Positions 24,262 through 40,486 of a stretch of DNA of 64,000 nt are shown here, one piece after another. The DNA comes from Halorarum halobium. Its GTDB lineage: Archaea > Halobacteriota > Halobacteria > Halobacteriales > Haloferacaceae. A program made the translations under genes and the position numbers. Location of the stretch: contig NZ_CP134949.1 in assembly GCF_032116555.1 (NCBI RefSeq), positions 3,038,001 to 3,102,000 on the forward strand, read 5' to 3'. Within the stretch, counting starts at the first letter, position 1. Each line of letters opens with the position of its first letter. Under the pieces are notes generated by a model. That model made no database searches. It saw only the letters and a program-made list of their open reading frames with translations, and was not told the DNA's origin.

Positions 24262-24264
24262 CCG

Positions 24265-24675
24265 ATGCGACGGCTCCCGTTCCCGCTCGTCCCGCGAGCG
24301 CTCCGCTGGCTCGGCGTCCTCGCGGTCCTCGGCGTCATCGGCCACTTCTCGCTCGGGGCCGTGCCGCCCGCGCCCCCGGAGCCGACGCCGTTCTGGGACA
24401 AGCGGCTCCACTTTGCCGCCTACGCCGGGCTGGGGCTCTCGCTCGCGTACGCGACGGTCGGTGCCGACGACGCGTCCCGGCGCGTCGCCGTCGTCCTCGG
24501 GGGCGCGCTCGCGTTCGGCGCGCTCGTCGAACTGCTCCAGGGGACGCTGCCGAACCGCTACTTCGGGTGGGGCGACCTGCTGGCGAACTGTCTGGGCGCG
24601 GCGCTCTCGAGCCTCTGGTTCGCGGTCGAACCGCGACTGGCGTACGTGCGGCTCCCCAGGCGAGGTCGGTCCTAG
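24265..24675 (+). CDS. VanZ family membrane protein
   Basis: 'WDKRLHFAAYAGLG', 'ELLQGTLPNR', 'DLLAN..G'. Confidence 0.85.
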   Translation: MRRLPFPLVPRALRWLGVLAVLGVIGHFSLGAVPPAPPEPTPFWDKRLHFAAYAGLGLSLAYATVGADDASRRVAVVLGGALAFGALVELLQGTLPNRYFGWGDLLANCLGAALSSLWFAVEPRLAYVRLPRRGRS

Positions 24676-24792
24676 GCGGCGAGTAACCGACCGGTAACGG
24701 ACCCGCGATGGACCGGCAGTCGAGCAGCGGTCGACCACCGAGCGCAACGACCGAGTAGCAGCAGACGAGCGAAGCCGGCAGCAGCCGGCGCC

Positions 24793-25605
24793 CTAGACGA
24801 GCAGCAGCCCGCCGAGCATCGCCAGCCCGCCGAGCGCGACACAGACGACCCAGAACGACACCCGCTCGACGACCCGCATCAGCGCGTCGATGGTGAGATA
24901 GCCGACGAGCGCGGCCGCGGCGAGCGAGACGGCGGCCGCGGCGAGCGTCACGTCCGCGAGTCCGGCGTCGAGGTACGCGAGCAGCCCGCCGCCCACGGCC
25001 GCGGGAATCGACAGGAGAAACGAGAACCTGAACGCGTCGGGCCCGTCGTGGCCACGGAGCAACAGCACGCCTGTCGTGGTTCCCGACCGGGAGACGCCGG
25101 GGAGGATGGCGACGCCCTGGGCGAGGCCGACGATGACCGCGTCCAGCAGGTCCGGCTCCGTGCGCCCGCCGAGGCCCAAGCGCGTCGAGAGCCGCTGGAA
25201 CACCCCGGTGAGGACGAGCAGCGCGCCCACCAGCACGACGAACAGCCCGCCGGTGAGCTCCGAGACGACCGCGTCGAGCGTCGCGTAGGCGGCGATGCCG
25301 ACGACGCCCGAGACGAGCGTGCCGACCGCGAGGAACGTCACGGTCGCCTGCTTGCCCTCGAACGCCTCCGCGGGACGCCACGCCGGGAGCAGCCCGAGCA
25401 CCTCGCGGAGGTCGCCGCGGTAGTAGGCCGTCGCCGACAGCGCCGTCCCGAGATGCAAAAAGAGTGCAAAGGCGACGGCGTCGTCGGGCGCACGACCCAG
25501 GAACGAGAGCGCGAGCGCGATGTTCCCCTCGCTGGAGATGGGCAGCCACTCGAACACGCCCTGGAGCGCCCCGACGACGAGCGCCACGAGCAGCGATCGG
25601 TCCAT
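24793..25605 (-). CDS. uppP: Undecaprenyl-diphosphate phosphatase (UppP/BacA family)
   Basis: 'QGVFEWLPISSEG', 'LHLGT', 'PGVSRSGTT', 'FSFLLSIPA'. Start set at ATG 25605. Confidence 0.9.
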   Translation of the reverse strand: MDRSLLVALVVGALQGVFEWLPISSEGNIALALSFLGRAPDDAVAFALFLHLGTALSATAYYRGDLREVLGLLPAWRPAEAFEGKQATVTFLAVGTLVSGVVGIAAYATLDAVVSELTGGLFVVLVGALLVLTGVFQRLSTRLGLGGRTEPDLLDAVIVGLAQGVAILPGVSRSGTTTGVLLLRGHDGPDAFRFSFLLSIPAAVGGGLLAYLDAGLADVTLAAAAVSLAAAALVGYLTIDALMRVVERVSFWVVCVALGGLAMLGGLLLV

Positions 25606-25664
25606 ACGGAGCGTGGCCGGCCCGGGTGGCAAGGGCCTTCCGATACCGTTCGCGGACGGCGGGG

Positions 25665-26159
25665 TCAGCCGCCCGGGGAGCGAGCCGACCGACCGACGAA
25701 CAGCCCGAGTCCGAGACAGCCGGCGAGGACACAGCCGCCGTAGACCGGGACGAACGCCACGCCGTCGAGCAGGAACGGGTTCCAGTCGAGCGGGAGGAAC
25801 GGCGCGGCGTCCGCGTAGAGCAGCGAGTCGAGGACGACGTGCGAGGAGACGCCGACGAGCGCGCCGGCCAGGACGGCCGAGCGGTGGCGCTCCCGCTCCG
25901 GGCGACCGAGCGCGAGCGTCGACTCGATCGGCTGCGGGAGCGCGAGGACGACGCCCGCCACGACGAGCGCGAGCGCGCCGCCGCCGACGAACGTCGTCAG
26001 GATCCCGTGAACGGGATCCCCGAGCGGGCCGTAGACGACCAGCGCCGCCCGCACGTCCACGACCACGCTTGCGAGGAGGAGCGTCGGGAGGTCGAGCCTG
26101 CGGTACAGCAGCGCGCCGAGGAGGAGGGCCGGACCCAGGTGGAACGGGGTGAACGGCAT
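25665..26159 (-). CDS. Membrane protein, putative metal-dependent hydrolase-like
   Basis: 'MPFTPFHLGP', 'VVD', 'HGILTT', 'SHVVLDS', 'PFLPL..NP', with a hydrophobic profile. Start set at ATG 26159. Confidence 0.6.
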   Translation of the reverse strand: MPFTPFHLGPALLLGALLYRRLDLPTLLLASVVVDVRAALVVYGPLGDPVHGILTTFVGGGALALVVAGVVLALPQPIESTLALGRPERERHRSAVLAGALVGVSSHVVLDSLLYADAAPFLPLDWNPFLLDGVAFVPVYGGCVLAGCLGLGLFVGRSARSPGG

Positions 26160-26256
26160 CGATCGGACGGTTCGGGGACGCCACGGAAAAATGACCCTGC
26201 CGAGGGCGTGCCGTGGCGGGTCCACCCCGGCTACCGATCCGGTCGAATCGACTCGG

Positions 26257-27453
26257 CTACCGGTCCCGCAGCACCGACTCGCCGGGCTTCGTCCGCGCGC
26301 CGCCGCTCAACACGACGCCGGCGTTGAGCTTCGTGTCGATGCCGGTCTTCACCGCGTCCCCGCAGACGACCCCGAACTTCCGGCGACCCGTGGAGGTCGA
26401 CTCCCCTTTCACCCGCATGCGGACCGGCTCGTCGTCGTGCCGGAGGTTCGCAACCGTCGTCCCCGCGCCGAAGTTCACGTCCCGTCCGAGCACGCTGTCG
26501 CCGACGTACGAGAGGTGTCCGGCCGTCGCGCCGCGCATGAACACGCTGTTTTTCACCTCGACGGCGTGGCCGACCTTCGCGTCCGGTCCGACGAGCGTCG
26601 AGCCGCGGACGTACGCGTTCGGCCCGACGCTCGCGCCCGACCGCACCAGCGCCGGCCCCTCGATGACGACGCCGGCGTCCACCTCCGCGCCCTCCTCGAC
26701 GACGACGCGCCCGCGGAGGTCGGCCGACCCGTGGACGTCGCCGGCGACGTCCCGTTCGAGTTCGCCGAGCTTCCACTCGTTCGCCTCGAGCAGTTCCCAC
26801 GGTCGGCCCACGTCCAGCCAGCGCTCGAACGGGACGACCCGCACGTCGGCTCGCTCGCAGGCCCGCGTGAGCACGTCCGTGAGCTCCAGTTCGCCCCGCT
26901 CGCTCTCCCCGACGTCGAGCCAATCCTGGGCCTCGGCCGGGAAGGCGTACGCGCCGGTGTTGACGAGGTTCGAGGGCGGGTCCGCCGGCTTCTCGGTGAC
27001 GCCGGTCGCGAAGCGCTCCCCGTCGCGCGATTCGGTGTGGAGGACGCCGTAGTTCTCGGGGGAATCGACGCGGTAGGAGCCGACCGTCGGGGCGAACTCG
27101 TACAGCGTCTCGAGGGACGCCTCGTCGTACAGCGCGTCGCCGTTCAGGACGGCGAACGGCCCGGGATCGAGGCGTGGTGCAGCGGCCCTGACGGCGTCGG
27201 CGGTGCCGCGCTGGTCGGTCTGCTCGGCGTACTCGACGGGCACCCCGGCGAACTCGTCGCCGAAGAACTCGCGGACCGGCGCCGACTCGTAGCCGACGAC
27301 GAGCACGAGCCGCGACGCGCCGGCGGAAACCGCGGCCGCCGCGGCGTGGGCGACGAGCGGACGGTCGGCGACGGGGAGCATCGGCTTGGGGCGGCTCGCG
27401 GTCAGCGGCCGCATTCGCGTCCCTTCGCCGGCCGCCAGGAGGACAGTCTGCAT
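26257..27453 (-). CDS. glmU: Bifunctional sugar-1-phosphate nucleotidylyltransferase/acetyltransferase (archaeal GlmU)
   Basis: 'LLAAGEGTRMRPLT..RPKPMLP', 'RGELELTD', hexapeptide repeats, 'EVKNS', 'HLSYVGDS', 'NFGAGT..ANLRHD', 'RRKFG'. Start set at ATG 27453. Confidence 0.9.
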   Translation of the reverse strand: MQTVLLAAGEGTRMRPLTASRPKPMLPVADRPLVAHAAAAAVSAGASRLVLVVGYESAPVREFFGDEFAGVPVEYAEQTDQRGTADAVRAAAPRLDPGPFAVLNGDALYDEASLETLYEFAPTVGSYRVDSPENYGVLHTESRDGERFATGVTEKPADPPSNLVNTGAYAFPAEAQDWLDVGESERGELELTDVLTRACERADVRVVPFERWLDVGRPWELLEANEWKLGELERDVAGDVHGSADLRGRVVVEEGAEVDAGVVIEGPALVRSGASVGPNAYVRGSTLVGPDAKVGHAVEVKNSVFMRGATAGHLSYVGDSVLGRDVNFGAGTTVANLRHDDEPVRMRVKGESTSTGRRKFGVVCGDAVKTGIDTKLNAGVVLSGGARTKPGESVLRDR

Positions 27454-27532
27454 GGGAGCTACCGCGTCCGCCGGACGCAAATCCGTTGTGGCTCGCGCGA
27501 CGCCCGCGGCGGCCGCGTCATCCGACCGGCCG

Positions 27533-29341
27533 TCATTCGACCGTGACGCTCTTGGCGAGGTTGCGCGGCCGGTCGATGCTGCGGCCGAGGCGGTTCGCCA
27601 TGTGGTAGGCGACGAGCTGGAGCTGTGCGTTCGCCAGCACCGGCGCGGTCCGCGGGTGCGTCTCCGGCACCGACAGCACGGCGTCTGCGTAGCGCTCGAC
27701 GTCCGAGGCCCCGTCCGTGACCGCGACGACCGGCGCGTCGCGCGCCTCGACCTCCTTCACGTTCCCGATGGTCTTTCTCGCCCGCTCGTCGTCGCCCGTC
27801 ACCACGGCGAACACGGGCGTCTCGTCGGTCACGAGCGCGAGCGTCCCGTGTTTCAGCTCGCCCGCCGCGAACCCCTCGGCGTGCTCGTAGGTGATCTCCT
27901 TGAACTTCAGCGCACCCTCCAGCGCGACGGGGTAGGCCGACCCGCGCCCGATGAAGAAGTACGACTCCGAGCCGAGGTACTCGTCCACGACGGCCTCGGC
28001 GTTCGACTCGTCGAGGACGTGCTGGAGGTGGTTCGGGAGGTCACGCAGCGCCGCCACCAGCTCCCGGGAGTCCGCGCCGTCGCGCTCGGCGAGTTCGGCC
28101 GTGAACAGCGAGAGCGCGACGAGCTGTGAGGAGAACGTCTTCGTCGCCGCGACGCCGATCTCGGGCCCCGAGCGGATGTAGAGGACGTGGTCACACTCCC
28201 GGGCGGCCGTCGAGTCGACGACGTTCGTGAGCGCCAGCGTCTCCGCGCCCCGCGCGTCGGCCTCCCGGAGCGCCGAGAGCGTGTCGGCGGTCTCGCCGCT
28301 CTGGGTGACGCCGACGACGAGCGTGTCGTCGGTCACGGGCGCCGGCCCGGTCGCGTACTCGCTGGCGAGGAACGCCTGGGCCGGGATGCCCGCCGAGCGG
28401 AGCGCCTCGACGCCGAACAGCGCCGCGTGGTAGGAGGTGCCACAGGCGACGAACTGGATCCGGCCGGGCGTCGACAGCCCGTCGAGCTGGTCGACGGTGA
28501 CCCGGCCCGCGAGCTCGTCCAGCCGGCCGCTGAGCCCCTGCCGGAGCGCGGTCGGCTGCTCGTTGATCTCCTTCAGCATGAAGTGGTCGTAGCCGCTCTT
28601 GCCGGTCTGTTCGGCGCTCCAGTCGACGGTCGTCACGGACTTCTCGACGGGGGTCCCGTCCGCGTCGGTCACGCGCCAGCCGTCAGGGTCGAGCACCGCG
28701 AACTCGCCGTCGTCGAGGTAGACGACGTCGCGCGTGTGTTCGAGGAACGCCGGCACGTCGCTGCCGAGGTACGTGGCGTCCTCTCCCACGCCGAGCACGA
28801 GCGGCGAGTCGTTCCGCGCGGCGAACACGCGCTCCTCGTCGGCGAGCACGACCGCGATGGCGTAGCTCCCCTCGATGCGGTCGAGCGCGTTCCTGACCGC
28901 GGCCTCGGGGTCGAGGCCGTCCCCGAGCGCGCGGGAGACGAGGTGGGGGACGACCTCGGTGTCGGTGTCGCTGTCGAACGTCACGCCCTCGGACGCCAGT
29001 TCGTCACGGAGCGCCTGGTAGTTCTCGATGATGCCGTTGTGGACGACGGCGACCCCGCCCGACTCGTCGACGTGCGGGTGGGCGTTCGCGTCCGTCGGCG
29101 GGCCGTGGGTGCTCCAGCGGGTGTGGCCGATGCCGACCGAGCCCGCGGGGGCCGTCTCCCCGGCGTCGATGGCGTCCCGGAGGTTCTCCAGTTCGCCCGC
29201 GCGCTTTTGCACGTCGAGTCCCGGCGTCGAGAGCGCGACACCGGCCGAGTCGTAGCCGCGGTACTCCAGCGTCGAGAGCCCGTCGAGCACGACGTCGAGC
29301 GTCTCGTCGCCCCGGCCGACGACGCCGATGATGCCACACAT
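27533..29341 (-). CDS. glmS: Glutamine--fructose-6-phosphate transaminase (isomerizing)
   Basis: 'MCGIIG', 'EYRGYDSAG', 'GHTRWSTHG', 'HNGIIEN', 'QSGETADT', 'GELKHG', C-terminal 'PRNLAKSVTVE'. Confidence 0.97.
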   Translation of the reverse strand: MCGIIGVVGRGDETLDVVLDGLSTLEYRGYDSAGVALSTPGLDVQKRAGELENLRDAIDAGETAPAGSVGIGHTRWSTHGPPTDANAHPHVDESGGVAVVHNGIIENYQALRDELASEGVTFDSDTDTEVVPHLVSRALGDGLDPEAAVRNALDRIEGSYAIAVVLADEERVFAARNDSPLVLGVGEDATYLGSDVPAFLEHTRDVVYLDDGEFAVLDPDGWRVTDADGTPVEKSVTTVDWSAEQTGKSGYDHFMLKEINEQPTALRQGLSGRLDELAGRVTVDQLDGLSTPGRIQFVACGTSYHAALFGVEALRSAGIPAQAFLASEYATGPAPVTDDTLVVGVTQSGETADTLSALREADARGAETLALTNVVDSTAARECDHVLYIRSGPEIGVAATKTFSSQLVALSLFTAELAERDGADSRELVAALRDLPNHLQHVLDESNAEAVVDEYLGSESYFFIGRGSAYPVALEGALKFKEITYEHAEGFAAGELKHGTLALVTDETPVFAVVTGDDERARKTIGNVKEVEARDAPVVAVTDGASDVERYADAVLSVPETHPRTAPVLANAQLQLVAYHMANRLGRSIDRPRNLAKSVTVE

Positions 29342-30534
29342 CAGCGGGTCACCTCCGCGTCCGCCGCGACGTTACCGTCGACGACTGCGCCCGGCCCGAC
29401 GCGCGCGCCGGGGCCGACGAGCGAGCCCGGGACGACGGTCGCGCCCCCGCCCAGATGCGCCCGGTCGGCGAGCACGCAGCCGAGCCGCCGATCCTCGTGG
29501 ATCCGCGTGCCGACGCGGACGTCGCTCGGGCCGGCCGGCACCGTCGCGCCGGCGCCGACGACCGCGCCCTGGCCAGTCACCGTGTCCGCCAGCGTCGCGT
29601 TCGCGCCGACGCGCGTGTCGTCGTCGACGACGCTCCGCCGGACGGTCGCGCCCGCCTCGACGGTCGCGTTCCGGCCGAGCGCCACGTCGGGGCCGACGAC
29701 CGCGCCGGGTTCGACGACCGCGTCGGGGCCGACGACGACCGGGGCGAACAGCGTCGCGTCGGGGTGGACGCGCGCGCTCTCGGCCAGGTACGCCCCGTCC
29801 CCGCGTTCGGGCTCGTCGACCAGCCCGCGTTCGAGCAGCCGACCGGCGAGTTCGAGCAGGTCCCACGGGTAGGTCACCTCCGAGCGGAGCCCGTCCGCGT
29901 GGACCCCCCGGACGTGGCCGCCGCGCTCGATGACGGCCGCGATGGCGTCCGTGAGCCCGAGTTCGCCGTCGGTCCGCGGCGTGGCCTCCAGATCGGAGAA
30001 GACGGAGGGGCCGAAGGCGTACACGCCGGCGTTCAGCAGCCGGTAACCGTCGCGGTCGGGCCGCTCGACCAGCTCGGTGACGGTGTCGCCGTCGAGGCCG
30101 ACCGCGCCGTACATCGGCGCCTCCTCGGACTCGACGACCGCCAGGGTCGCCACGTCCTCGGTGGTGTGGGCCGAGAGGACGGCGTCGATCATCTCGTTCG
30201 CGAGCACCTCGTCGCCGTTGACGACGAGGAAGTCCTCGTCGATGGTATCGCGGACCCGGAGGAGGGCGTGGCCGCTGCCGAGCTGCTTGCGCTGGACGTG
30301 GTAGGTGATCGGCCGGTCCCGGTAGGTCGAGCCGAAGTGGTTCTGGACCCGGTCGCGCTCGTAGCCGACGACGACGTGGAGGTCGTCGATGCCGGCGTTG
30401 ACGAGCGCGTCGAGCACGTACTCGAGGATCGGTCGGTTCGCGGCCGGAAGCATCGGTTTCGGCCGGTGACGGGTGAGCGGGCGGAGGCGCTGGCCCTCGC
30501 CCGCGGCGAGGACGACGGCGGAGTCGAGTTCCAT
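29341..30534 (-). CDS. Sugar-phosphate nucleotidyltransferase (GlmU paralogue)
   Basis: 'VLAAGEGQRLRPLTRHRPKPMLP', 'QLGSGHA', 'VVNGD' and left-handed hexapeptide repeats. Its stop codon overlaps the glmS ATG. Confidence 0.85.
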   Translation of the reverse strand: MELDSAVVLAAGEGQRLRPLTRHRPKPMLPAANRPILEYVLDALVNAGIDDLHVVVGYERDRVQNHFGSTYRDRPITYHVQRKQLGSGHALLRVRDTIDEDFLVVNGDEVLANEMIDAVLSAHTTEDVATLAVVESEEAPMYGAVGLDGDTVTELVERPDRDGYRLLNAGVYAFGPSVFSDLEATPRTDGELGLTDAIAAVIERGGHVRGVHADGLRSEVTYPWDLLELAGRLLERGLVDEPERGDGAYLAESARVHPDATLFAPVVVGPDAVVEPGAVVGPDVALGRNATVEAGATVRRSVVDDDTRVGANATLADTVTGQGAVVGAGATVPAGPSDVRVGTRIHEDRRLGCVLADRAHLGGGATVVPGSLVGPGARVGPGAVVDGNVAADAEVTR

Positions 30535-33389: not shown

Positions 33390-34370
33390 TTACTCGTCTT
33401 TCGCTCGCAACAGTTCGCGGACCGAATCCTCCACGCCGTACTCAGGCTCCCACCCGAGCGTCTCTCGCGCCTCGGAGATGTCCACCTCGAACGAGTCCAC
33501 CAGCGTCTCGGCGCTCCGCGGGTTCTCGACCAGTTTCACCTCGGGTTCCGTCCCGAGCTCCTCGCCGGCCAGCCGCCGGACCAGCTCCGCGACGGCCATC
33601 ACGCCCGGGTCCTCCTCGGAGGCGATCTCGTACTTCTCGACGCCCGTCTCGCCGGCCTCCAGTTGCTCGAACAGCCGTTCGGCGCTCCGGACGTACGCGC
33701 GGGCCACGTCCTTGACGTGGATGTAGTTGCGGGCCTGCGTGCCCGGCTCGTACACTGTCAGCGGCTCGCCGGCGAGCGCGCGGCTCACGAAGAAGTTGAT
33801 GACCGTCCCCTTCGAGACGCGCCGGCCGCCGATCTCGTGTTCGCCGTACAGGTTCGACTTGAGGTAGAGGTGGGCCGGGAACGCGCCGGCCGCGAAGTCC
33901 TCGATGGCGTGCTCGGAGAGCACCTTCGTCCGGCCGTACCAGTTCATCGGGTCCCGCCCGTCCGCGGCCGAGATGGGGAACGACTCGGGATCACCGAGCA
34001 CCGCCATGCTGAACGGGAACACCAGCGCGGCGCCGGTCTTCCGGCAGAACCAGGCGACGTTGTTCGTCCCCGTGACGTTCACGTCGTAGGCCCGATCCGG
34101 GTTCTCCTCGCAGTCGTCGACGCCGCTGACGGCCGCGAGGTGACAGACCACGTCCGCGCCCGAGAGCGTCTCCTCCAGTTCGGGCCGGTTGCGGACGTCG
34201 ACGTGCCGGACGGTGACGTCCTCGATCTCGCGGACCTCGCCGAGATAGAAGTTGTCGAGCGCGGTGACCGTCCAGTCGGGGTGCTGCTCGCGGAGCAGTT
34301 TCACCACGCGGCTGCCGATGAAGCCGGCCGCGCCAGTGACCGCGACGGTGCGGGAGTCGTCGGTCGTCAT
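33390..34370 (-). CDS. NAD-dependent epimerase/dehydratase (extended SDR)
   Basis: 'VTGAAGFIGS', 'HLAA', 'YGRTK', 'NLYG', 'QARNYIHVKDVA'. Confidence 0.9.
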   Translation of the reverse strand: MTTDDSRTVAVTGAAGFIGSRVVKLLREQHPDWTVTALDNFYLGEVREIEDVTVRHVDVRNRPELEETLSGADVVCHLAAVSGVDDCEENPDRAYDVNVTGTNNVAWFCRKTGAALVFPFSMAVLGDPESFPISAADGRDPMNWYGRTKVLSEHAIEDFAAGAFPAHLYLKSNLYGEHEIGGRRVSKGTVINFFVSRALAGEPLTVYEPGTQARNYIHVKDVARAYVRSAERLFEQLEAGETGVEKYEIASEEDPGVMAVAELVRRLAGEELGTEPEVKLVENPRSAETLVDSFEVDISEARETLGWEPEYGVEDSVRELLRAKDE

Positions 34371-34463
34371 GGTCGTACGCCCGTCGTGGGGCGGGAAATA
34401 GCCGCCGCTTCCTCGTCGAGAGTGAAAGAGAACACTATCGACGAAGGCCGCACTGGTGGTGGT

Positions 34464-34868
34464 TCACCAGACGGTCTCGACGTTCCCGTCCTCGAACGCG
34501 CCGTCGGTCGTGATGACCGCTTCCGTGGTATGTGCCCGATGGCTCGCAATCACGAGTCCGTCGTGAAGCCCGAAGCAGTCGGCGATCCGTCCGTACTCCC
34601 TGAGCACTTCGCCCGTATCGGGTGGCGTCGTGACGGGGCCGTTCGCGAGGAGCGCTTGCTGTGTCGCTTCCGGCGTTCCGACGAGGTCGATTCCCCTGAC
34701 TGTCTTGTCACGAGCGACCGCGTAGAGTGTTTCCGCGACCGTCGTCGGCGGTGCGTGGATGATCGCTTCGCCCGCCTCGGCCTCGGCGAACAACCGGTCG
34801 GCGCGTCGAGGGAGTGCGTCGACGAGGTACGTCAGCAACGCGACCGCATCAGCGGTGTAGGCCCGCAC
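34464..34868 (-). CDS. PIN-domain (VapC-like) toxin
   Basis: 'YTADAVALL', 'TVAETLY', 'GLHDGLVIA', 'VITTD..F'. GTG start 3 nt after the antitoxin stop. Confidence 0.75.
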   Translation of the reverse strand: MRAYTADAVALLTYLVDALPRRADRLFAEAEAGEAIIHAPPTTVAETLYAVARDKTVRGIDLVGTPEATQQALLANGPVTTPPDTGEVLREYGRIADCFGLHDGLVIASHRAHTTEAVITTDGAFEDGNVETVW

Positions 34869-34871
34869 GCG

Positions 34872-35132
34872 TTACACCTCGTCGTAGTTACGCTCGCGGC
34901 GTTCACGGAGACTGTCACGCAGTTCGGCCGCGACCGCATCCCGTTCGGACTCGGAAGCATCGTCCGGCAGGAGCATCCCACGCGCATCGGTCTTGGTCCG
35001 TTTCTTGACGAGGATTCCGCTCTCGGTTTCCACCCAGAGCACCTCATCGCCCGGCTCCAGTCCGTATCGTTCACGGAGCGATTTCGGTATCGTCGCCTGT
35101 CCCTTCTCCGTGATTCGGGTCGCCTCGCTCAT
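34872..35132 (-). CDS. AbrB/MazE/SpoVT-family antitoxin
   Basis: 'ITEKGQATIPKSLRERYGLEPGDEV'. Confidence 0.9.
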   Translation of the reverse strand: MSEATRITEKGQATIPKSLRERYGLEPGDEVLWVETESGILVKKRTKTDARGMLLPDDASESERDAVAAELRDSLRERRERNYDEV

Positions 35133-35136
35133 ATGG

Positions 35137-35157
35137 AGTAATACTTCCGGTATTACT
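35137..35157. promoter_or_regulatory. Probable autoregulatory operator of the AbrB-VapC pair
   Basis: Perfect inverted repeat AGTAATAC-ttccg-GTATTACT between a TTTTAA-like box and the ATG at 35132. Confidence 0.65.
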
Positions 35158-35189
35158 TAAAACGTTTCTGGGCCGGGAGCCAAATTGTA

Positions 35190-36131
35190 TCACGCACTGT
35201 CGAACCGGTCGGCGAGGTCGCGAATGCCCTCGGTTAGCGTGTGTTCCGGCTCGAAGCCCGTGTCCGCCAGCCGGTCGAAGTTGACGTGATAGGAGGGGCC
35301 CGGATGCTCCTCCTCGAGGTAGGTGACGTCCAGGTCGCGGTCGAGTTCCGCCCGAACCGCCTCGGCGATCTCCTCGATGCGGTAGTTCTCGTCGTTGTCG
35401 CCGACGTTGTAGACGAGGTCGTCCCAGGCGTCCGGGTCGAGCGCGGCGTCGGCGTAGGCGTTCGCCGCGTCGGTGACGTGGATGAACGGCCGCCAGTTGG
35501 AGCCGTCGCCGTACACCGTGAGCGGCCGGCCGGTGAGCGCCCGGAAGACGAAGTGGTTCACGACGAGGTTGAAGCGGACGCCCGGCGAGTAGCCGTAGTT
35601 CGTGCTCATCCGGAGCGCCGTGCCCGCGAACCCGTACCGCTCGCTCGCCTCGCGGAGCAGGGACTCGGCCTCGTACTTCGACTCGGCGTAAGGGTTGAGC
35701 GGGTCGGGCTCGACCGTCTCGTCGATGTCCTCGACGGCCGCGCGGCCGTAGATGTTACACGAGGAGGCGAACACGACGTTCGAGACGTCGAGCTTGCCGG
35801 CCGCGAGGAACACGTTCTCGGTCGCCTCGTGGTTGACGCGGAACGTCTCCTCGCGCCGGTCGTGAGTCGAGTCGGCACCCGTGATGGCAGCGAGGTGGAT
35901 CACCGCGTCGACGCCCCGCATCGCGGACTCGACGTCGCCGTACTCGGTGATGTCGCCGCGGCGGAACCGCACGGAGTCGTCGCCGCCGAGCCCGCTCCCC
36001 ATCAGGTTCCGCGGCGACGACATCGAGAGGTCGTCGAGGACGGTCACGCGGGAGACGCGGTCGTCGGCCCGGAGGAGCGGGACGAGCGCGCTGCCGATGT
36101 AGCCGCAGCCGCCGGTGACGAGGACGTGCAT
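35190..36131 (-). CDS. NAD-dependent epimerase/dehydratase (extended SDR)
   Basis: 'VLVTGGCGYIGS', 'ASSCNIYG', 'YAESK', 'RFNLVVN', 'WRPFIHVTD'. Start set at ATG 36131. Confidence 0.9.
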   Translation of the reverse strand: MHVLVTGGCGYIGSALVPLLRADDRVSRVTVLDDLSMSSPRNLMGSGLGGDDSVRFRRGDITEYGDVESAMRGVDAVIHLAAITGADSTHDRREETFRVNHEATENVFLAAGKLDVSNVVFASSCNIYGRAAVEDIDETVEPDPLNPYAESKYEAESLLREASERYGFAGTALRMSTNYGYSPGVRFNLVVNHFVFRALTGRPLTVYGDGSNWRPFIHVTDAANAYADAALDPDAWDDLVYNVGDNDENYRIEEIAEAVRAELDRDLDVTYLEEEHPGPSYHVNFDRLADTGFEPEHTLTEGIRDLADRFDSA

Positions 36132-36222
36132 GGCGGCACGGAACGGGCGGAGAACACTAAACGGCCCGGTTTGAGGACGTGGAAGGCCTCGAGAGCGGAA
36201 CCGCACGGTCCGGAGCGCCGAG

Positions 36223-36522
36223 CTACTGCATCGACACGTACGTGAGCGCCGCCAGGGCGACGAACTGGAGCGCGCGCATCACGAGCACCGTCATCTGCGA
36301 GGCGGGCGTGGCGGCGTACAGCATGCTCGAACTGAAGAAGAAGCCGATGGCGACGAGGTTCTCCACGAGCAGGACCGCGGCGAACGTCAACAGCCCCAGC
36401 GTCAGCGGCGTCCGGAACTCGCGGTAGTTCCGCCACCAGACCGCGACGAGCGCGGCCAGCAGCAGGACGTTCAGCCCGGAGAGGGCGCTTGCGACCGTCA
36501 GATAGGGTGTCATCGTTGCCAT
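36223..36522 (-). CDS. Small three-TM membrane protein
   Basis: 99 aa with three hydrophobic segments ('VWWRNYREFRT..TLGL', 'LLVENL'), 1 nt after the HTH gene. Confidence 0.75.
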   Translation of the reverse strand: MATMTPYLTVASALSGLNVLLLAALVAVWWRNYREFRTPLTLGLLTFAAVLLVENLVAIGFFFSSSMLYAATPASQMTVLVMRALQFVALAALTYVSMQ

Positions 36523-36523
36523 G

Positions 36524-36796
36524 TCAGACGTGCTCCGTGATCTCCTCGAACTCCGCCCGGTGGCGCTCGAACCGGTCGGTGAGGAAGTACAGTTTGCCGT
36601 ACTGCTGGTCCCCGCTCTCGATCACGCCGTGGTCCTCCAGCATGTCGAGGTGGTGTCGAACCGAGTTGTAGTCGATGTCGAGCTCCCCGGTGAGCTGGTT
36701 CGCGTTGTGCGGCCGCTCGTCGAGCAGGCGGATGATCGCCGCCCGGTTGGTGCCCCCGCGCGTGCCGGCCAGCAGGTACCAGAGTGCCTTCTCCAT
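36524..36796 (-). CDS. ArsR-like winged-HTH regulator
   Basis: 'LWYLLAGTRGGTNR..II.LL.ERP.NANQL...L.IDY..VRHHL..L'. Confidence 0.85.
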   Translation of the reverse strand: MEKALWYLLAGTRGGTNRAAIIRLLDERPHNANQLTGELDIDYNSVRHHLDMLEDHGVIESGDQQYGKLYFLTDRFERHRAEFEEITEHV

Positions 36797-36909
36797 CGCG
36801 CGTCGTCTCGCTTACCTCCCCGTCCACTGATGGGAAAACGCTTCGCCTTCCGAGGGGGGCGACCCGTCCCGTCCACCCGCGGCCGCAAACTGGCTGGGAA
36901 CACGGGCGC

Positions 36910-38478
36910 TCACAGCGACGACGGGTCGACCGTCGCCGACACCCAGCCGCTCGGCCCGCTGGGAAACGCCCGTGACTCCTCCCGCGGCTGGACGGTCCCG
37001 TCGGCCTCGACGGCCCGGACGACGGCCTCGTGGCTCCCGTCGGGCGGGTCGTACCGGTGGGCCCACTGTCGCCACACGTCCTCGCCCGGGAGCGGCTCCG
37101 AGAGGTCCGCCTCGGTCCACGTCCCGCCGCCGTCGGTCGACACCTCGACGCGATCGATCCCGCGCGTCCCGGCGTAGGCCGCGCCCGCGAGTTCGACGCG
37201 GCCGTCCGCGAGCCGGTTGCGGACCCAGAGCTTGGCGACGGTGTTGACCGGTCCGGTGCCGTGCCAGCCGCGCTTCTCCCAGTACCCCTCGGCCTCGCCG
37301 TCGAGCACCTCGACCTCCGTGAGCCACTTCACGTTGATCTCGCCCCAGTGGCCCGGAATCAACGCCCGCGCCGGCGCGCCGTGGCCGCGCGGGAGCGGCC
37401 CGCCGTTCATCCCGACCGCGAGGAACCCGCCCTCGCGCAGCGCCGCGATGGGGAACTCCTCGAAGAAGCCGTCCTCGGCCCGGAGCATCACGTACTCGCC
37501 CTCAGGGTCGGCCTGCTCGACCAGGTCGGCGAGCGAGACGCCGGTCCAGAGCGCGTTGTCGAGTTTGTTGCCGTTCAGCCCCTCGCCGACGCAGCGGAGC
37601 GAGACGAACCGGTGCTCGTGTTCCATCGCGTCGACGTCCGCGAAGGTGAACTCCGTCTCCGACCCGACCGCGCCGTGGACGCGGAGCGACCAGTCCTCGC
37701 GGGAGAGGTCCGGGTCGACGTTCGCCACGTCGACGGTGTAAAAGGAGTCGCTCACGAGCGGCTCCAGCCCGGCGACGTCGAGCGACTTCTCCTCGGCTTC
37801 GGCGAGCAACGCTGCAACCTCGTCCGACGACGAGGACGCAGAGCCATCGGCGGAGTCCATGGAATCGGTTTCGGCCGACGTGGACACGCCGAGCGTACTC
37901 GCGACTGACCGTCCGCCTGCGCCCAGCAGGCCGACGCCGAGTGCCGCGGCGACGCTCGCGAGCACGGACCGTCGCGCGGCGTTCGGTGTCCCATCCGCGC
38001 TCCGATCGTCTCCGTCCCGCTGTCCGCCCCGTACCGCGGTGAGGACGGCAGGAGCGGCGACCACGACGGCGGCACCGACCCCCGCGGCGGCGGCAGAGCG
38101 CGGCGAGTCGACGAGCGCGAACCCAAACAGGGCGACGCCCAGCCCCGCGACGGCCGGCGGCCCGGCCCGGTGGCCCACGCGTCCTCCGAGCCACAGTCCG
38201 AGTCCGGCGACGAGCGCGAGCAGGAACGCCGCGGTCGCCAGCCCGCCCGCGAACGCCAACTGGCTGCCCAGGCTGCCGAGAGTCGTGATGGCGACCGTGA
38301 CGACGGTCCCGGGCGTGAGCCGCACCACCTCGTTCGCGATGGGCGCGCCGACGAACGCCGGCGTGATACCGACCGCGGCGTAGGAGGCCACGAGCCCCGC
38401 GACTCCGGCGCTCAGGGCGACGACTGCGGAACCCACCTCGGTCGAAACCGACCCGAACCGCTCACGAACGGGGGTCAT
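36910..38478 (-). CDS. Membrane-anchored molybdopterin-dependent oxidoreductase (sulfite oxidase family)
   Basis: N-terminal TM helices, Mo-ligand region 'LRCVGE', 'NALWTGVSL', 'HGAPARALIPGHWGEINVKWL', 'GYWEKRGW', and a C-terminal dimerisation-type domain 'RVEVSTDGGGTW'. Start set at ATG 38478, overlapping the upstream stop. Confidence 0.85.
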   Translation of the reverse strand: MTPVRERFGSVSTEVGSAVVALSAGVAGLVASYAAVGITPAFVGAPIANEVVRLTPGTVVTVAITTLGSLGSQLAFAGGLATAAFLLALVAGLGLWLGGRVGHRAGPPAVAGLGVALFGFALVDSPRSAAAAGVGAAVVVAAPAVLTAVRGGQRDGDDRSADGTPNAARRSVLASVAAALGVGLLGAGGRSVASTLGVSTSAETDSMDSADGSASSSSDEVAALLAEAEEKSLDVAGLEPLVSDSFYTVDVANVDPDLSREDWSLRVHGAVGSETEFTFADVDAMEHEHRFVSLRCVGEGLNGNKLDNALWTGVSLADLVEQADPEGEYVMLRAEDGFFEEFPIAALREGGFLAVGMNGGPLPRGHGAPARALIPGHWGEINVKWLTEVEVLDGEAEGYWEKRGWHGTGPVNTVAKLWVRNRLADGRVELAGAAYAGTRGIDRVEVSTDGGGTWTEADLSEPLPGEDVWRQWAHRYDPPDGSHEAVVRAVEADGTVQPREESRAFPSGPSGWVSATVDPSSL

Positions 38479-38900
38479 CGCGTCCGGGCGTACCCCAGCG
38501 CCACCGTCCCGACCACGAGCGCGGCGAGGAACGCGGGTACGCCGAACCCGGGCCCGAACGCGGTCGATTCGTCCGTCGAGTCGGCCATCCCCCCGTCCAT
38601 GCCGGTCCCGGTCATCCCCGAGTCGGTCATTCCGGTCCCGGTCATCCCCGAGTCGGTCATTCCGGAGTCCGTGGTACCGGAGTCGGTCATCTCGTCGTCC
38701 ATCCCGGCTTCCGTCCCCGTCATCGAGTCGTTCATCCCCGTCTCGGTCCCGTTCTCCTGTGCGTTCGTCGACTCCGCGAAGCCGTTCAGGTCGGTCGCAG
38801 CGGCCGCGTTCGTGGCGGCCAGCGCCCCCGTCACGCCGACGGCGAGCAGGACCGTCGCCGTCACGAGCAGGGTGCCGACCGCGAGGGTGGGTCGTCGCAT
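38475..38900 (-). CDS. Small Met-rich surface protein with signal peptide and PGF-CTERM anchor
   Basis: 'MRRPTLAVGTLLV...' signal, (T-D/G-S/T-G-M)n repeats, C-terminal 'FGPGFG'+TM+'RTR'. Start set at ATG 38900. Confidence 0.8.
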   Translation of the reverse strand: MRRPTLAVGTLLVTATVLLAVGVTGALAATNAAAATDLNGFAESTNAQENGTETGMNDSMTGTEAGMDDEMTDSGTTDSGMTDSGMTGTGMTDSGMTGTGMDGGMADSTDESTAFGPGFGVPAFLAALVVGTVALGYARTR

Positions 38901-39069
38901 CACCGATGGGGAGGGGAGGCTTCCCAAAAGGGATTTTCTGAGGTCTCTCCCGGCTCTCTGTGGGGTTCGTGAGGAGTCGATCGAAACTCCGTCTAGAGTT
39001 CACCTCGACCGGGACCGTCAGCAGACGACCGGAGCGGGAGAGCGTGATTCGAACGCGGCGAGAAGTCGA

Positions 39070-39141
39070 TGCGTGGGGGACGAATCGAACGATCCAGCTC
39101 GACCGTGGAACGGCCGCGTGTTTCCCTTACACCACCCACGC
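39070..39141 (-). tRNA. tRNA-Gly(TCC)-like gene, non-canonical
   Basis: Minus strand folds as acceptor GCGTGGG/CCCACGC, D arm GTGT-AAGGGAA-ACAC, anticodon arm CGGCC-GTTCCAC-GGTCG, T arm GGA(T)CG-TTCGATT-CGTCC with one bulge, discriminator A. Confidence 0.6.
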
Positions 39142-39146
39142 GCGGA

Positions 39147-39231
39147 CGAAAGGGGGCGGATTCGAACCGCCGAGGCCTCTTCGGCCACCCACCGCGACGG
39201 TGGATGCTCTACCGGGCTGAGCGACCCTTTC
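39147..39231 (-). tRNA. tRNA-like gene with long variable arm and aberrant anticodon loop (central triplet TCG)
   Basis: Minus strand folds as acceptor GAAAGGG/CCCTTTC, D arm GCTC-AGCCCGGTA-GAGC, anticodon arm TCCAC-CGTCGCG-GTGGG, V arm GGCC-GAAGA-GGCC, T arm GGCGG-TTCGAAT-CCGCC, discriminator G. Confidence 0.65.
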
Positions 39232-39301
39232 ACGCGGCGACGTCCGCCGCGTTCACGACGAGGGGCGCGACCCAACTCGTAATTCGTCCGCTAACGGGCG
39301 G

Positions 39302-40486
39302 TTAGTCGTCGGCGAGCCGGTCCTCGAGAACGCCGGGCAGGAAGCGGTCCTCGTGGGACTCGATGACGTCCGCGTTCTCGACGAGCGTCTCGATCACGCC
39401 GCGGATGCCCTCCTCGAACGTGACCGACTGGCCGCCGATGAGGTCGGCGTAGCGCTCGTTCTCGATCTCCATCTGGTGGGTCTCGTCCTCGTCGCGCGGG
39501 TTCTCGAAGTGCTCGACCTCCGTGCCGAGATCGAACTCGCCGGCCACGTCCGCGATCGTGTTGCCCATCTCGACGATGGAGATGGGCCGGGTCACCTGGT
39601 TGTAGACGACGTGGTCGTCGGGGCGGTCGTCCGGGTCGCCGAGCGCGAGGCGGGCGAGCCCCTCGACGGCGTCCTCCAGCGCGATGAACGGCTTGCGCTG
39701 CTCGCCCTTGCCGTACACCGTGATGGGGTAGCCCGCGACCGCCTGGGCGGCAAAGCGGTGGGCGACGACGCCGAAGTAGTAGTCGAAGTCGAAGCGGGTG
39801 GCGAGCCGGTCGTCGGTGGCCGTCTCGTCGGTCTCGGCACCGTAGACGATGGCCGTCCGCACGTCGGAGATCGGGATGTCGAACTGCGTGTGGGCGAGCC
39901 GCAGGTTCGCCGCGTCGTGGCTCTTGGTGAGGTGGTACCACGAGCCGGCCATCGCCGGGAACGGGACGTCGTCGCGCTCGCCGTCGTTCTCCATCGCCGC
40001 GCCGCCCTCGGGGATCGGGAACTCGGGTGCGCCGTAGACGCCGGTCGTCGTCGTCTCGACGAAGTGGGTGTCCGAGAGGTCGTTCTCGTGGAGCCCCCAG
40101 ACGAGGTTCCGGGTCGCCTGCATGTTGTTGTGCTGGGTGTAGTTCGCCCGCTCGCCGTTGATCTGCGAGTACGGCGCGGAGGGCTGTGCGGCGGCGTGGA
40201 CGACGGTGTCGGGCTCGTGGACCTGGAGGAGTTCGTCCACGAACGCGCGGTCGGTCAGGTCGCCCTCCACGAACGAGAGGTTCGCGAGCCCGAGCGCCTC
40301 CTCGGCCGCCTCGAGCCGCGTCTCGATGTCCGCGACCGGCGTGGCCGAGACGGAGCCGACCTCCTCGACCCAGCCGCGGCGGCCGAAGTTGTCGACGAGC
40401 ACGACGCGCTCGTCAGTTCGGGAGGCGATGCGGAGCGACGTGGGCCAGCCGACGTAGCCGTCGGCACCCGTGACGACGATGGTCAT
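39302..40486 (-). CDS. UDP-sulfoquinovose synthase-like (SqdB/Agl3) extended SDR
   Basis: 'VTGADGYVGWPT', 'VDNFGRR', 'QPSAPYS', 'GVYG.P', 'GSWYHLTKSHD', 'TRFDFDYYFG.V.HRF..QAV.G.P.TVYGKG'. Confidence 0.8.
   Translation of the reverse strand: MTIVVTGADGYVGWPTSLRIASRTDERVVLVDNFGRRGWVEEVGSVSATPVADIETRLEAAEEALGLANLSFVEGDLTDRAFVDELLQVHEPDTVVHAAAQPSAPYSQINGERANYTQHNNMQATRNLVWGLHENDLSDTHFVETTTTGVYGAPEFPIPEGGAAMENDGERDDVPFPAMAGSWYHLTKSHDAANLRLAHTQFDIPISDVRTAIVYGAETDETATDDRLATRFDFDYYFGVVAHRFAAQAVAGYPITVYGKGEQRKPFIALEDAVEGLARLALGDPDDRPDDHVVYNQVTRPISIVEMGNTIADVAGEFDLGTEVEHFENPRDEDETHQMEIENERYADLIGGQSVTFEEGIRGVIETLVENADVIESHEDRFLPGVLEDRLADD

Follow-up and report, generated by a model that had tools for sequence, protein, structure and literature searches.

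A tandem pair of conserved tRNA-like genes stripped of decoding features in Halorarum halobium: candidate serine and glycine donors for surface glycans

Introduction

An intergenic gap in the genome of the haloarchaeon Halorarum halobium carries two tRNA-like genes in tandem, both of which combine intact stems with deviant decoding parts, and the question raised by this locus is what such genes are kept for. The initial annotation, made from the window (the whole stretch of 64,000 nucleotides analysed here), read them either as a relic of a horizontally acquired tRNA cluster or as tRNA mimics kept for another role, namely processing signals in a polycistron, decoys for PIN ribonucleases or aminoacyl donors for envelope modification. 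Dedicated non-proteogenic tRNAs are, according to the available text of PMC7826273, reported only from staphylococci.

Results and discussion

Structure of the tandem pair

The features of the window that bear on this question are listed below by window position.

39147..39231, minus strand: element 1 (E1-A), an 85-nt serine-type tRNA-like gene without encoded CCA; 7/5 layout, G73, closing pair C32-G38, G33 and C37
39142..39146, minus strand: spacer of 5 nt, equal in length in all five tandem pairs
39070..39141, minus strand: element 2 (E2-UCC), a 72-nt glycine-type tRNA-like gene, assigned by cloverleaf, best canonical matches and covariation
39033..39058, minus strand: decayed T-arm/acceptor remnant, assigned by folding, T-loop motif and alignment
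39276..39295, minus strand: upstream promoter-like motif with the core TWACRA, 46-51 nt before element 1; putative promoter function
39302..40486, minus strand: UDP-sulfoquinovose synthase-like (sqdB/Agl3-type) epimerase (NF041015, 337.5 bits, below the cut-off of 575; Pfam Epimerase)
36223..38927, minus strand: genes for a Met-rich small protein, a molybdopterin oxidoreductase, an ArsR-type HTH protein and a small membrane protein
33390..36206, minus strand: two genes for NAD-dependent sugar epimerases, separated by genes for an AbrB/MazE antitoxin and a PIN-like protein
21880..30534, no strand assigned: surface-glycosylation neighbourhood with genes for an aglB-like oligosaccharyltransferase, glmS and two glmU-like proteins

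Two complete minus-strand cloverleaves separated by 5 nt had been described at 39147-39231 and 39070-39141, and sequence reading, ARAGORN and folding all agree with this description. ARAGORN and folding give both elements an acceptor stem of 7 bp, a D stem of 4 bp and a T loop reading TTCGA, and the 7/5 cloverleaf with the D- and T-loop invariants is present in both, with one bulged base in the T stem of element 2. The anticodon loop of element 1 is indeed aberrant (C32 G33 UCG C37 G38). This element also has a 4-bp variable arm, which was absent from the initial description, a regular T arm and G at position 73, and its minimum-energy fold is the cloverleaf itself (-43.3 kcal/mol, z -3.15; 2 of 200 shuffles were equally good). 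Element 2 has G1-C72, C2-G71, G3-C70, the anticodon UCC with C35 and C36, and A73; the G32:C38 pair and the bulged U in the T stem, both reported initially, were confirmed, and the copy studied here retains U33 and A37. Its minimum-energy fold differs from the full cloverleaf (z -1.75).

ARAGORN and Rfam, which had been proposed as checks of the tRNA reading, gave divergent answers: ARAGORN calls both elements, whereas Rfam returned only a sub-threshold tRNA-Sec match for element 1 (23.4 bits against a gathering threshold of 47, E 0.13) and listed no match for element 2. At four loci with family members, Rfam gave no gathering-level match on the elements. A tRNA-Sec identity for element 1 was rejected in view of this score, the 7/5 layout, the 4-bp D stem, the triplet UCG instead of UCA and the lack of a 13-bp acceptor domain. 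A further ARAGORN call, tRNA-Gly(CCC) at window 15000-15091, is a false positive located inside a 2587-aa surface-protein ORF and devoid of tRNA invariants.

The degenerate third fragment described downstream of the pair was also confirmed. A T-loop motif exists at 39042-39054, where approximately 0.004 such motifs are expected per 60 nt, and in an alignment from which one mis-placed row (E1sdh_G421) was left out, the fragment is similar to the 3' terminus of bulged members of the E1 family. Its fold is not significant (z +1.06), and no counterpart follows the remaining four of the five tandem pairs. It is a decayed T-arm/acceptor remnant private to the genome studied.

Amino-acid identity of the two elements

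The genome studied contains canonical Gly-UCC and Arg-UCG genes and four Ser genes, and both elements are therefore extras. In a model built from nine element-1 relatives, the top canonical tRNA was the host Ser-UGA (60.7 bits), and the best three canonical matches of a model built from six element-2 relatives were the three Gly genes of the genome. As described in the available text of PMC9976931, serine identity depends on the variable arm and G73, the anticodon being irrelevant, and the archaeal glycine identity elements are C35, C36, C2-G71 and G3-C70. Because serine identity ignores the anticodon, the 'Arg' label given to element 1 by ARAGORN is doubtful and probably wrong. At the sequence level, both elements are additions to a full tRNA set that have retained serine-type and glycine-type identity features, respectively. 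A synthetase dedicated to the pair was considered and discarded, because the genome has one SerRS and one GlyRS only.

Conservation of the cloverleaves and loss of decoding features

Compensatory stem changes among Halobacteria, which had been suggested as a test, were found in both families. In 12 distinct copies of E1-A, 99.7% of the stem cells are paired and six pairs are changed on both sides; the corresponding values for 11 distinct copies of E2-UCC are 94.2% and nine pairs. None of 500 shuffles reached the observed pairing in either family, and slid controls dropped to 28-59%. The search patterns allowed no variation in the acceptor and D stem of E1 or in the CCAC of E2, so that the invariance of these parts is not evidence, whereas G73, A73, position 33 and the T stem were left free.

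Eight different anticodon triplets occur among the 12 E1-A copies. U33 and a purine at position 37 are each found in 1 of 12, G73 and a paired variable arm in all 12, and positions 32 and 38 form a Watson-Crick pair in every copy (10 C-G, 2 G-C). G51-C63 is present in 0 of the 12 copies versus 26 of 43 canonical intronless tRNAs of the genome studied, a set from which eight evident false calls were excluded by hand; the C51-G63 pair of element 1 also occurs in 11 of these 43 genes. All 43 have U33 and a purine at position 37, and none has G32 or C32-G38, so that the anticodon-loop features of element 1 (G33, C37 and C32-G38) and element 2 (G32:C38) occur in none of them.

The E2-UCC copies differ in three features from their relatives with the anticodon GCC in haloarchaeal tRNA arrays: U33 is present in 7 of 11 versus 23 of 23, the T stem is unbroken in 6 of 11 versus 22 of 23, and a TGC T loop occurs in 4 of 11 (the element studied here not being among them) versus 0 of 23. 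G32:C38 is also carried by 19 of the 23 array Gly(GCC) genes, which are otherwise translational in appearance, and this pair alone therefore does not exclude decoding. Both elements are conserved as cloverleaves and have lost decoding features.

Distribution and subfamilies of the element-1 family

The exact element-1 pattern matched 187 of 401 Halobacteria genomes, and the reversed control gave no match. The tandem of E1-A and E2-UCC 5 nt apart is present in five of the 401 genomes, belonging to three genera in two families; a locus of Halorientalis brevis (L091) shows such a pair. This recurrence, with the compensatory changes described above, speaks against the idea that the pair is a dead relic.

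We distinguish three groups within the E1 family. Element 1 belongs to E1-A, whose T stem is unbroken. The second group occupies one fixed site in family f12, and its T stem contains a bulged C. The third and widest group has a bulged U and is located behind sdhCDBA in 17 of 20 sampled loci, or in polysaccharide clusters; A73 is found in 23 of its 50 copies, and its variable arm is often unclear. Throughout the family, the top half of the molecule is kept, and the anticodon and variable region differ in length and sequence. The genome studied and its congener have no E1 gene at the sdhA site; in non-carriers at this site, E1 is cleanly absent and not decayed (9 informative of 10 loci).

The f12 site (L125, L126, L129, L131, L132 and L133) lies beside genes for a helicase, a TRM5/TYW2 methyltransferase and NMD3 and has a strong upstream motif, and all 18 of its bulged-C copies have G73. 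The sdhCDBA-site genes span four families (L167-L186, e.g. L168 6028-6127, minus strand); their acceptor, D arm and bulged T arm are fixed, their anticodon region is hypervariable, and in the single locus tested the gene scored below the Rfam threshold. At L005, L011 and L025, repeat-like sequences with copies of the T loop and 3' end lie downstream of E1, which suggests that tRNA-targeting repeats may treat E1 as an insertion site.

Neither the element-1 nor the element-2 pattern matched any viral contig, and no match was found in phages; plasmids gave two short matches, to the Gly arm only. Many results of a near-match scan allowing one mismatch are coding sequence. A search of mainly open-access literature, including the available text of PMC8450103 (tRNAscan-SE 2.0), found no description of these families, although supplements or tRNA databases may list members as undetermined tRNAs. 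The pair is real and conserved, and it is apparently undescribed. One possible member, Haloferax sRNA194 as an E1-family tRNA-like RNA, was left unlinked: this RNA is given as HVO_2011s2, with a length of 117 nt and no occurrence in another genome (available text of PMC3956466), and a term search found no tRNA-like description in the available portions of PMC4152357, PMC3296008, PMC3432209 and PMC3495736.

Relationship of element 2 to mobile tRNA arrays

The element-2 pattern was found in 17 of the 401 Halobacteria genomes, nine of which have UCC. A scan of genome contigs yielded 37 loci, 32 of them haloarchaeal; the five bacterial matches, four arising by chance and one being an ordinary Gly gene in an array, were excluded. 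A locus in a Planobispora record (L095 1379-10592) is an array of approximately 30 tRNA genes whose Gly gene matched the pattern by chance. At 23 of the 37 loci, the GCC version directly follows a TROVE gene, and at least six tRNA genes are present at 18 of the 27 TROVE-type loci checked. The TROVE-adjacent GCC loci are the known mobile haloarchaeal tRNA clusters, as far as the available text of PMC6333295 describes them. A Y RNA reading, prompted by the TROVE neighbour, was dropped because 18 of 27 such loci are of this known array type with at least six tRNA genes.

The family closest to element 2 is the Gly(GCC) gene of these arrays, which stands at the array end. The proposed link to a mobile tRNA cluster thus holds for the origin of element 2 but not for element 1, whose best score in seven array loci was 47.6 bits compared with 60.7 bits for the host Ser-UGA. 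As to the window itself, besides the one ARAGORN call in the large surface-protein gene, it contains the pair only, and its G+C content is 0.65-0.73 over 30-46 kb. No TROVE/Ro60 gene was found in the genome studied. The array Gly(GCC) gene is immediately 3' of the TROVE/Ro60 gene in L083 (4421-6050) and at 22 loci like it; by eye, the flanks of this Gly gene could lengthen its acceptor stem, for which two folded examples gave no support.

Genomic neighbourhood, promoter and expression

By its gene content, the window is a surface-glycosylation region with aglB-like, glmS, two glmU-like and three epimerase genes, including the sqdB-like one. The sqdB-like epimerase gene is the upstream neighbour of the pair in the genome studied and in its congener, where the pair lies between this gene and the next epimerase gene. 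The Met-rich/oxidoreductase block is missing at the locus of the congener and is therefore outside the conserved unit. In the other two genera (L213, L222 and L223), an unrelated gene that is oriented away stands upstream of the pair, and no glycan family is present within 7 kb. There is no fixed partner gene, and the suggestion of a processing signal in a polycistron running from the sqdB-like gene into the Met-rich and oxidoreductase genes is unsupported on both its upstream and its downstream side. The PIN decoy fares no better, because the locus of the congener lacks the AbrB/PIN-like pair (34464-35132) and no toxin family or shared nuclease was present among the neighbours scanned. The gene at 34464-34868, which gave no family match in our scans, is presumably PIN-like.

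Two proteins of the block beside the pair deserve description. The gene at window 38475-38900 encodes a Met/Thr/Gly-rich repeat protein with no family match and with what we take to be a PGF-like tail; the following gene (36910-38477) encodes a membrane molybdopterin oxidoreductase with weak SorA/MsrP matches.

At least two glycan gene families are present within 7 kb of 10 of 50 E1 loci and of 0 of 24 at the two inherited sites. For the other E1 sites, in our own grouping, the figure is 7 of 18 compared with 1.9% of the positions of the genome studied, with a glycan query set drawn partly from E1/E2 loci. Under the same rule, the studied window has one glycan family only.

Besides element 1, the TWACRA motif lies upstream of 35 of 82 E1 copies; its background frequency is 0.5% in random windows, and it precedes 3 of the 43 canonical tRNAs. 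Broken down into subfamilies, the E1 counts are 16 of 18, 6 of 14 and 13 of 50. This distribution suggests that element 1 may have its own promoter. A sigma-70 scan, which does not cover archaeal promoters, found nothing.

One raw RNA-seq run was available for a relative carrying E1 at the sdh site (L168). Sense depth was 6-15 over the E1 gene versus 28-122 in most flanking bins, and it climbs just beyond the E1 3' end (11.8, 27.5 and 42.7). Read ends did not pile up, and CCA was absent from the 6 loose ends displayed out of 35. For a library of unspecified size selection, this result is weak either way, and the run neither supports nor excludes a small structured RNA. RNA-seq contigs of three runs were uninformative on expression.

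Fem-like proteins as candidate users

The genome studied has five strong matches to PF13480 (Fem-like GNAT), one of which also matches PF02388; none of the 50 window proteins scanned is Fem-like. Strong PF13480 matches were found in 11 of 11 genomes with E1-A or E2-UCC; among genomes lacking both patterns the count was 15 of 51, and among carriers of other E1 types 19 of 33. Counted by genus, the figures are 8 of 8 carriers versus 11 of 23 (p 0.012), for comparison genomes that were hand-picked and are not independent.

According to BLAST clustering, all 10 E2-UCC genomes carry one Fem-like subfamily, which also occurs in one of the two Fem-positive controls clustered. The best matches of a structural model of this subfamily (pLDDT 87.3) are the aminoacyl-tRNA-dependent enzymes Sba18/Sbb17, FemA and FemX (E 3e-13 to 3e-10), and in a profile search with the subfamily protein, FemX was a weak top match (E 0.009). 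In the genome studied, the neighbours of the subfamily gene encode a DegT aminotransferase, Gfo/Idh and GT4 proteins and a flippase. Contig C3 has a polysaccharide operon (G000 C3 42600-55450, L295) that contains two Fem-like GNAT genes together with DegT, Gfo/Idh, GT4, flippase and epimerase genes. Fem-like proteins are encoded at G000 C3 49573-50580 and 42600-43655 and at C1 2878710-2879777. As for the fold relatives, Orf11 of the Sba18-type group glycylates an amino sugar from Gly-tRNA (available text of PMC12945691).

At locus L197 (6126-10180), E2-UCC lies between a divergent argS gene and a co-oriented FemAB-like gene, approximately 10 nt before which it ends, and a TYW1-type wyosine-synthesis gene follows; the first pair of this E2-UCC copy is mismatched. 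The L197-type Fem gene is present in only 2 of 10 E2-UCC genomes, and this FemAB-like gene was rejected as the single partner of the pair because it is not shared (14 of 70 genomes). In genus g20, a second, E1-A-type copy occurs in 8 of 22 genomes, and the L197-type FemAB-like gene is present in 5 of these 8 versus 0 of the 14 others, a pattern that may reflect one clade.

Across the whole E1 family, FemAB is found in 98 of 187 genomes with E1 versus 40 of 214 without, a co-occurrence that is confounded by lineage. All 22 genomes of genus g53 have E1, and two of them have PF02388. The FemAB counts in family f12 are 61 of 85 genomes with E1 versus 13 of 16 without. The widest E1 subfamily does not track FemAB.

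A proposed donor role and its alternatives

From the structure, conservation and loss of decoding features of the pair, together with the presence and fold of the Fem-like enzymes, we infer a route through transcription, processing, charging, exclusion from translation and transfer. The locus would be a two-gene unit of chargeable, ribosome-excluded tRNAs donating serine and glycine to Fem-fold transferases of surface-polysaccharide operons, a proposal to which we give about an even chance. A shared upstream promoter would yield a dimeric precursor, to be matured by RNase P, tRNase Z and the CCA enzyme; the single SerRS would charge element 1 with serine, and the single GlyRS would attach glycine to element 2; with their closed anticodon loops and altered T arms, both RNAs would be barred from the ribosome and elongation factor; and Fem-fold aminoacyl-tRNA transferases, encoded elsewhere beside amino-sugar genes, would move serine or glycine onto an amine of a glycan. 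Of these steps, donation is the least secure, and it has better support for element 2 than for element 1. Among the options offered initially, tRNA derivatives kept for a non-decoding role are supported, and aminoacyl donors for envelope modification are the best supported of all.

It is rather unlikely, in our estimate, that the elements are tRNA mimics with a non-donor role, whose acceptor, D and T arms would form a binding surface (as a regulatory RNA, a decoy for an anticodon nuclease or tRNA-binding protein, or a stress sensor) and whose charging would be incidental. This explanation is strongest for the sdh-site E1 group. It would account for an E1 family that is present in 187 of 401 genomes with its top half kept and its anticodon and variable region free, that sits behind sdhCDBA (17 of 20 loci) and at the fixed f12 site without glycan genes, that has A73 in 23 of 50 bulged-U copies, and that shares the upstream motif at the subfamily counts given above. 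However, an elbow mimic would need neither the G73 and paired variable arm retained in all 12 E1-A copies nor the A73 and anticodon retained by E2-UCC, and the genome studied has no TROVE/Ro60 gene, nor is there a shared nuclease neighbour.

The remaining alternatives assume either ordinary uses or none. Low-level translation, with element 2 as a spare tRNA-Gly(UCC) and element 1 as a serine-inserting missense reader similar to allo-tRNAs, would fit the U33 and A37 kept in the element 2 studied, and serine is inserted in E. coli by allo-tRNAs that combine G73 and a long variable arm with varied anticodons (available text of PMC5389517); it is nevertheless distinctly improbable, given that U33 and a purine at position 37 each occur in only 1 of 12 E1-A copies, that U33 is absent from four and the T stem broken in five of the 11 E2-UCC copies, and that a canonical Gly-UCC gene is already present. 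That the pair represents slowly decaying, currently functionless relics of duplicated or array-derived tRNA genes seems highly improbable to us: the changes gather in the anticodon loop while the stems covary, with a pairing level that none of 500 shuffles attained, two families share the order of the tandem and the length of its spacer, and the E1 site is constant across families, with clean absence rather than decay in non-carriers (9 informative of 10 loci). These observations have to be set against a patchy distribution (17 of 401 genomes match the E2 pattern, nine of them having UCC), the closeness of element 2 to mobile array genes, the decayed third fragment and the low read depth over one family member (L168). 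Finally, there is scarcely any likelihood that the elements serve processing or insulation, with RNase P and tRNase Z cutting a host operon transcript at this point. The upstream gene is oriented away in L213, L222 and L223, the neighbours are not conserved, and synthetase identity features would be needless for such a role, even though the pair lies between co-oriented sugar genes in the genome studied and its congener and the L168 read depth rises just past the E1 3' end.

If the donor reading is true, the pair would represent the first archaeal example to be shown of a non-ribosomal tRNA pool and aminoacyl-tRNA-dependent envelope chemistry, convergent with those of staphylococci. More broadly, Halobacteria might possess a new class of dedicated donor tRNAs, anticodon-free serine-type and array-derived glycine-type, feeding Fem-fold enzymes that act on surface glycans; we advance this generalization tentatively, as somewhat short of probable. 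An archaeal family that drops the anticodon and leaves the rest of the tRNA intact would show a convergent partition of the aminoacyl-tRNA pool; the model would also assign a substrate to many uncharacterised haloarchaeal Fem-like proteins and would predict amino-acylated surface glycans. Even without a donor role, E1 is a widespread inherited tRNA-shaped RNA gene that falls below the Rfam threshold. It is directly testable because it is present in genera with RNA-seq data, and it could be a natural orthogonal tRNA scaffold.

Comparison with known systems

Halobacteria lack peptidoglycan, and the host of the pair is, by its relatives, one of them and not of staphylococcal lineage. As in the staphylococcal type, an extra copy stands beside the canonical isoacceptor with synthetase identity kept, at the sequence level, and a Fem-family transferase is encoded in the genome, none lying inside the window. 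The available text of PMC7826273 gives UCC, a 5-nt loop and TGC/TGT T loops as marks of staphylococcal non-proteogenic tRNA-Gly, describes the preferential use of the S. aureus isoacceptors NP1-NP3 by FmhB/FemA/FemB, and reports such tRNAs as detected only in S. aureus and S. epidermidis. Like NP1-NP3, the E2 gene is an extra Gly gene with UCC, a 5-nt anticodon loop, an altered T arm and, in 4 of 11 copies, a TGC loop, and Fem-fold proteins occur in the same genomes. It differs in its archaeal host, A73, the T-stem bulge and the pairing with a serine-type gene. The pair would work most like the staphylococcal non-proteogenic tRNA-Gly, albeit as a separate lineage.

The best fold match of the candidate partner is to the Orf11/Sba18-type GNAT transferases that glycylate streptothrisamine (PMC12945691, available text; PDB 9wqy and 9wqw), which provide a precedent for acylating an amino sugar from aminoacyl-tRNA. 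In contrast to the proposed system, they belong to a Streptomyces antibiotic pathway; identity is 13-15%, and the available parts of the source mention no dedicated tRNA.

Element 1 resembles allo-tRNAs (Mukai et al., PMC5389517; review PMC7609411; available text of both) in G73, a long variable arm, diverse anticodons and an occurrence in polycistrons of irregular tRNAs. However, allo-tRNAs have 8/4 or 9/3 layouts, are bacterial and in several cases translational, whereas element 1 has a 7/5 layout and a closed loop and is without a shared toxin-antitoxin context. YrlA Y RNAs (available text of PMC4201824) are also tRNA mimics with D and T arms, and the Gly genes related to element 2 adjoin Ro60 genes; YrlA is permuted in layout and lies at most 4 kb from Ro60, whereas the elements described here are full cloverleaves in a genome without a TROVE match.

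The haloarchaeal mobile clusters (Morgado and Vicente, PMC6333295, available text) share with element 2 the anticodon-arm sequence and G32:C38 of the array Gly(GCC) gene. The locus studied differs from them in consisting of two genes instead of an array, in the lack of TROVE in the genome and in having UCC for GCC, and the array copies retain U33 and a regular T arm.
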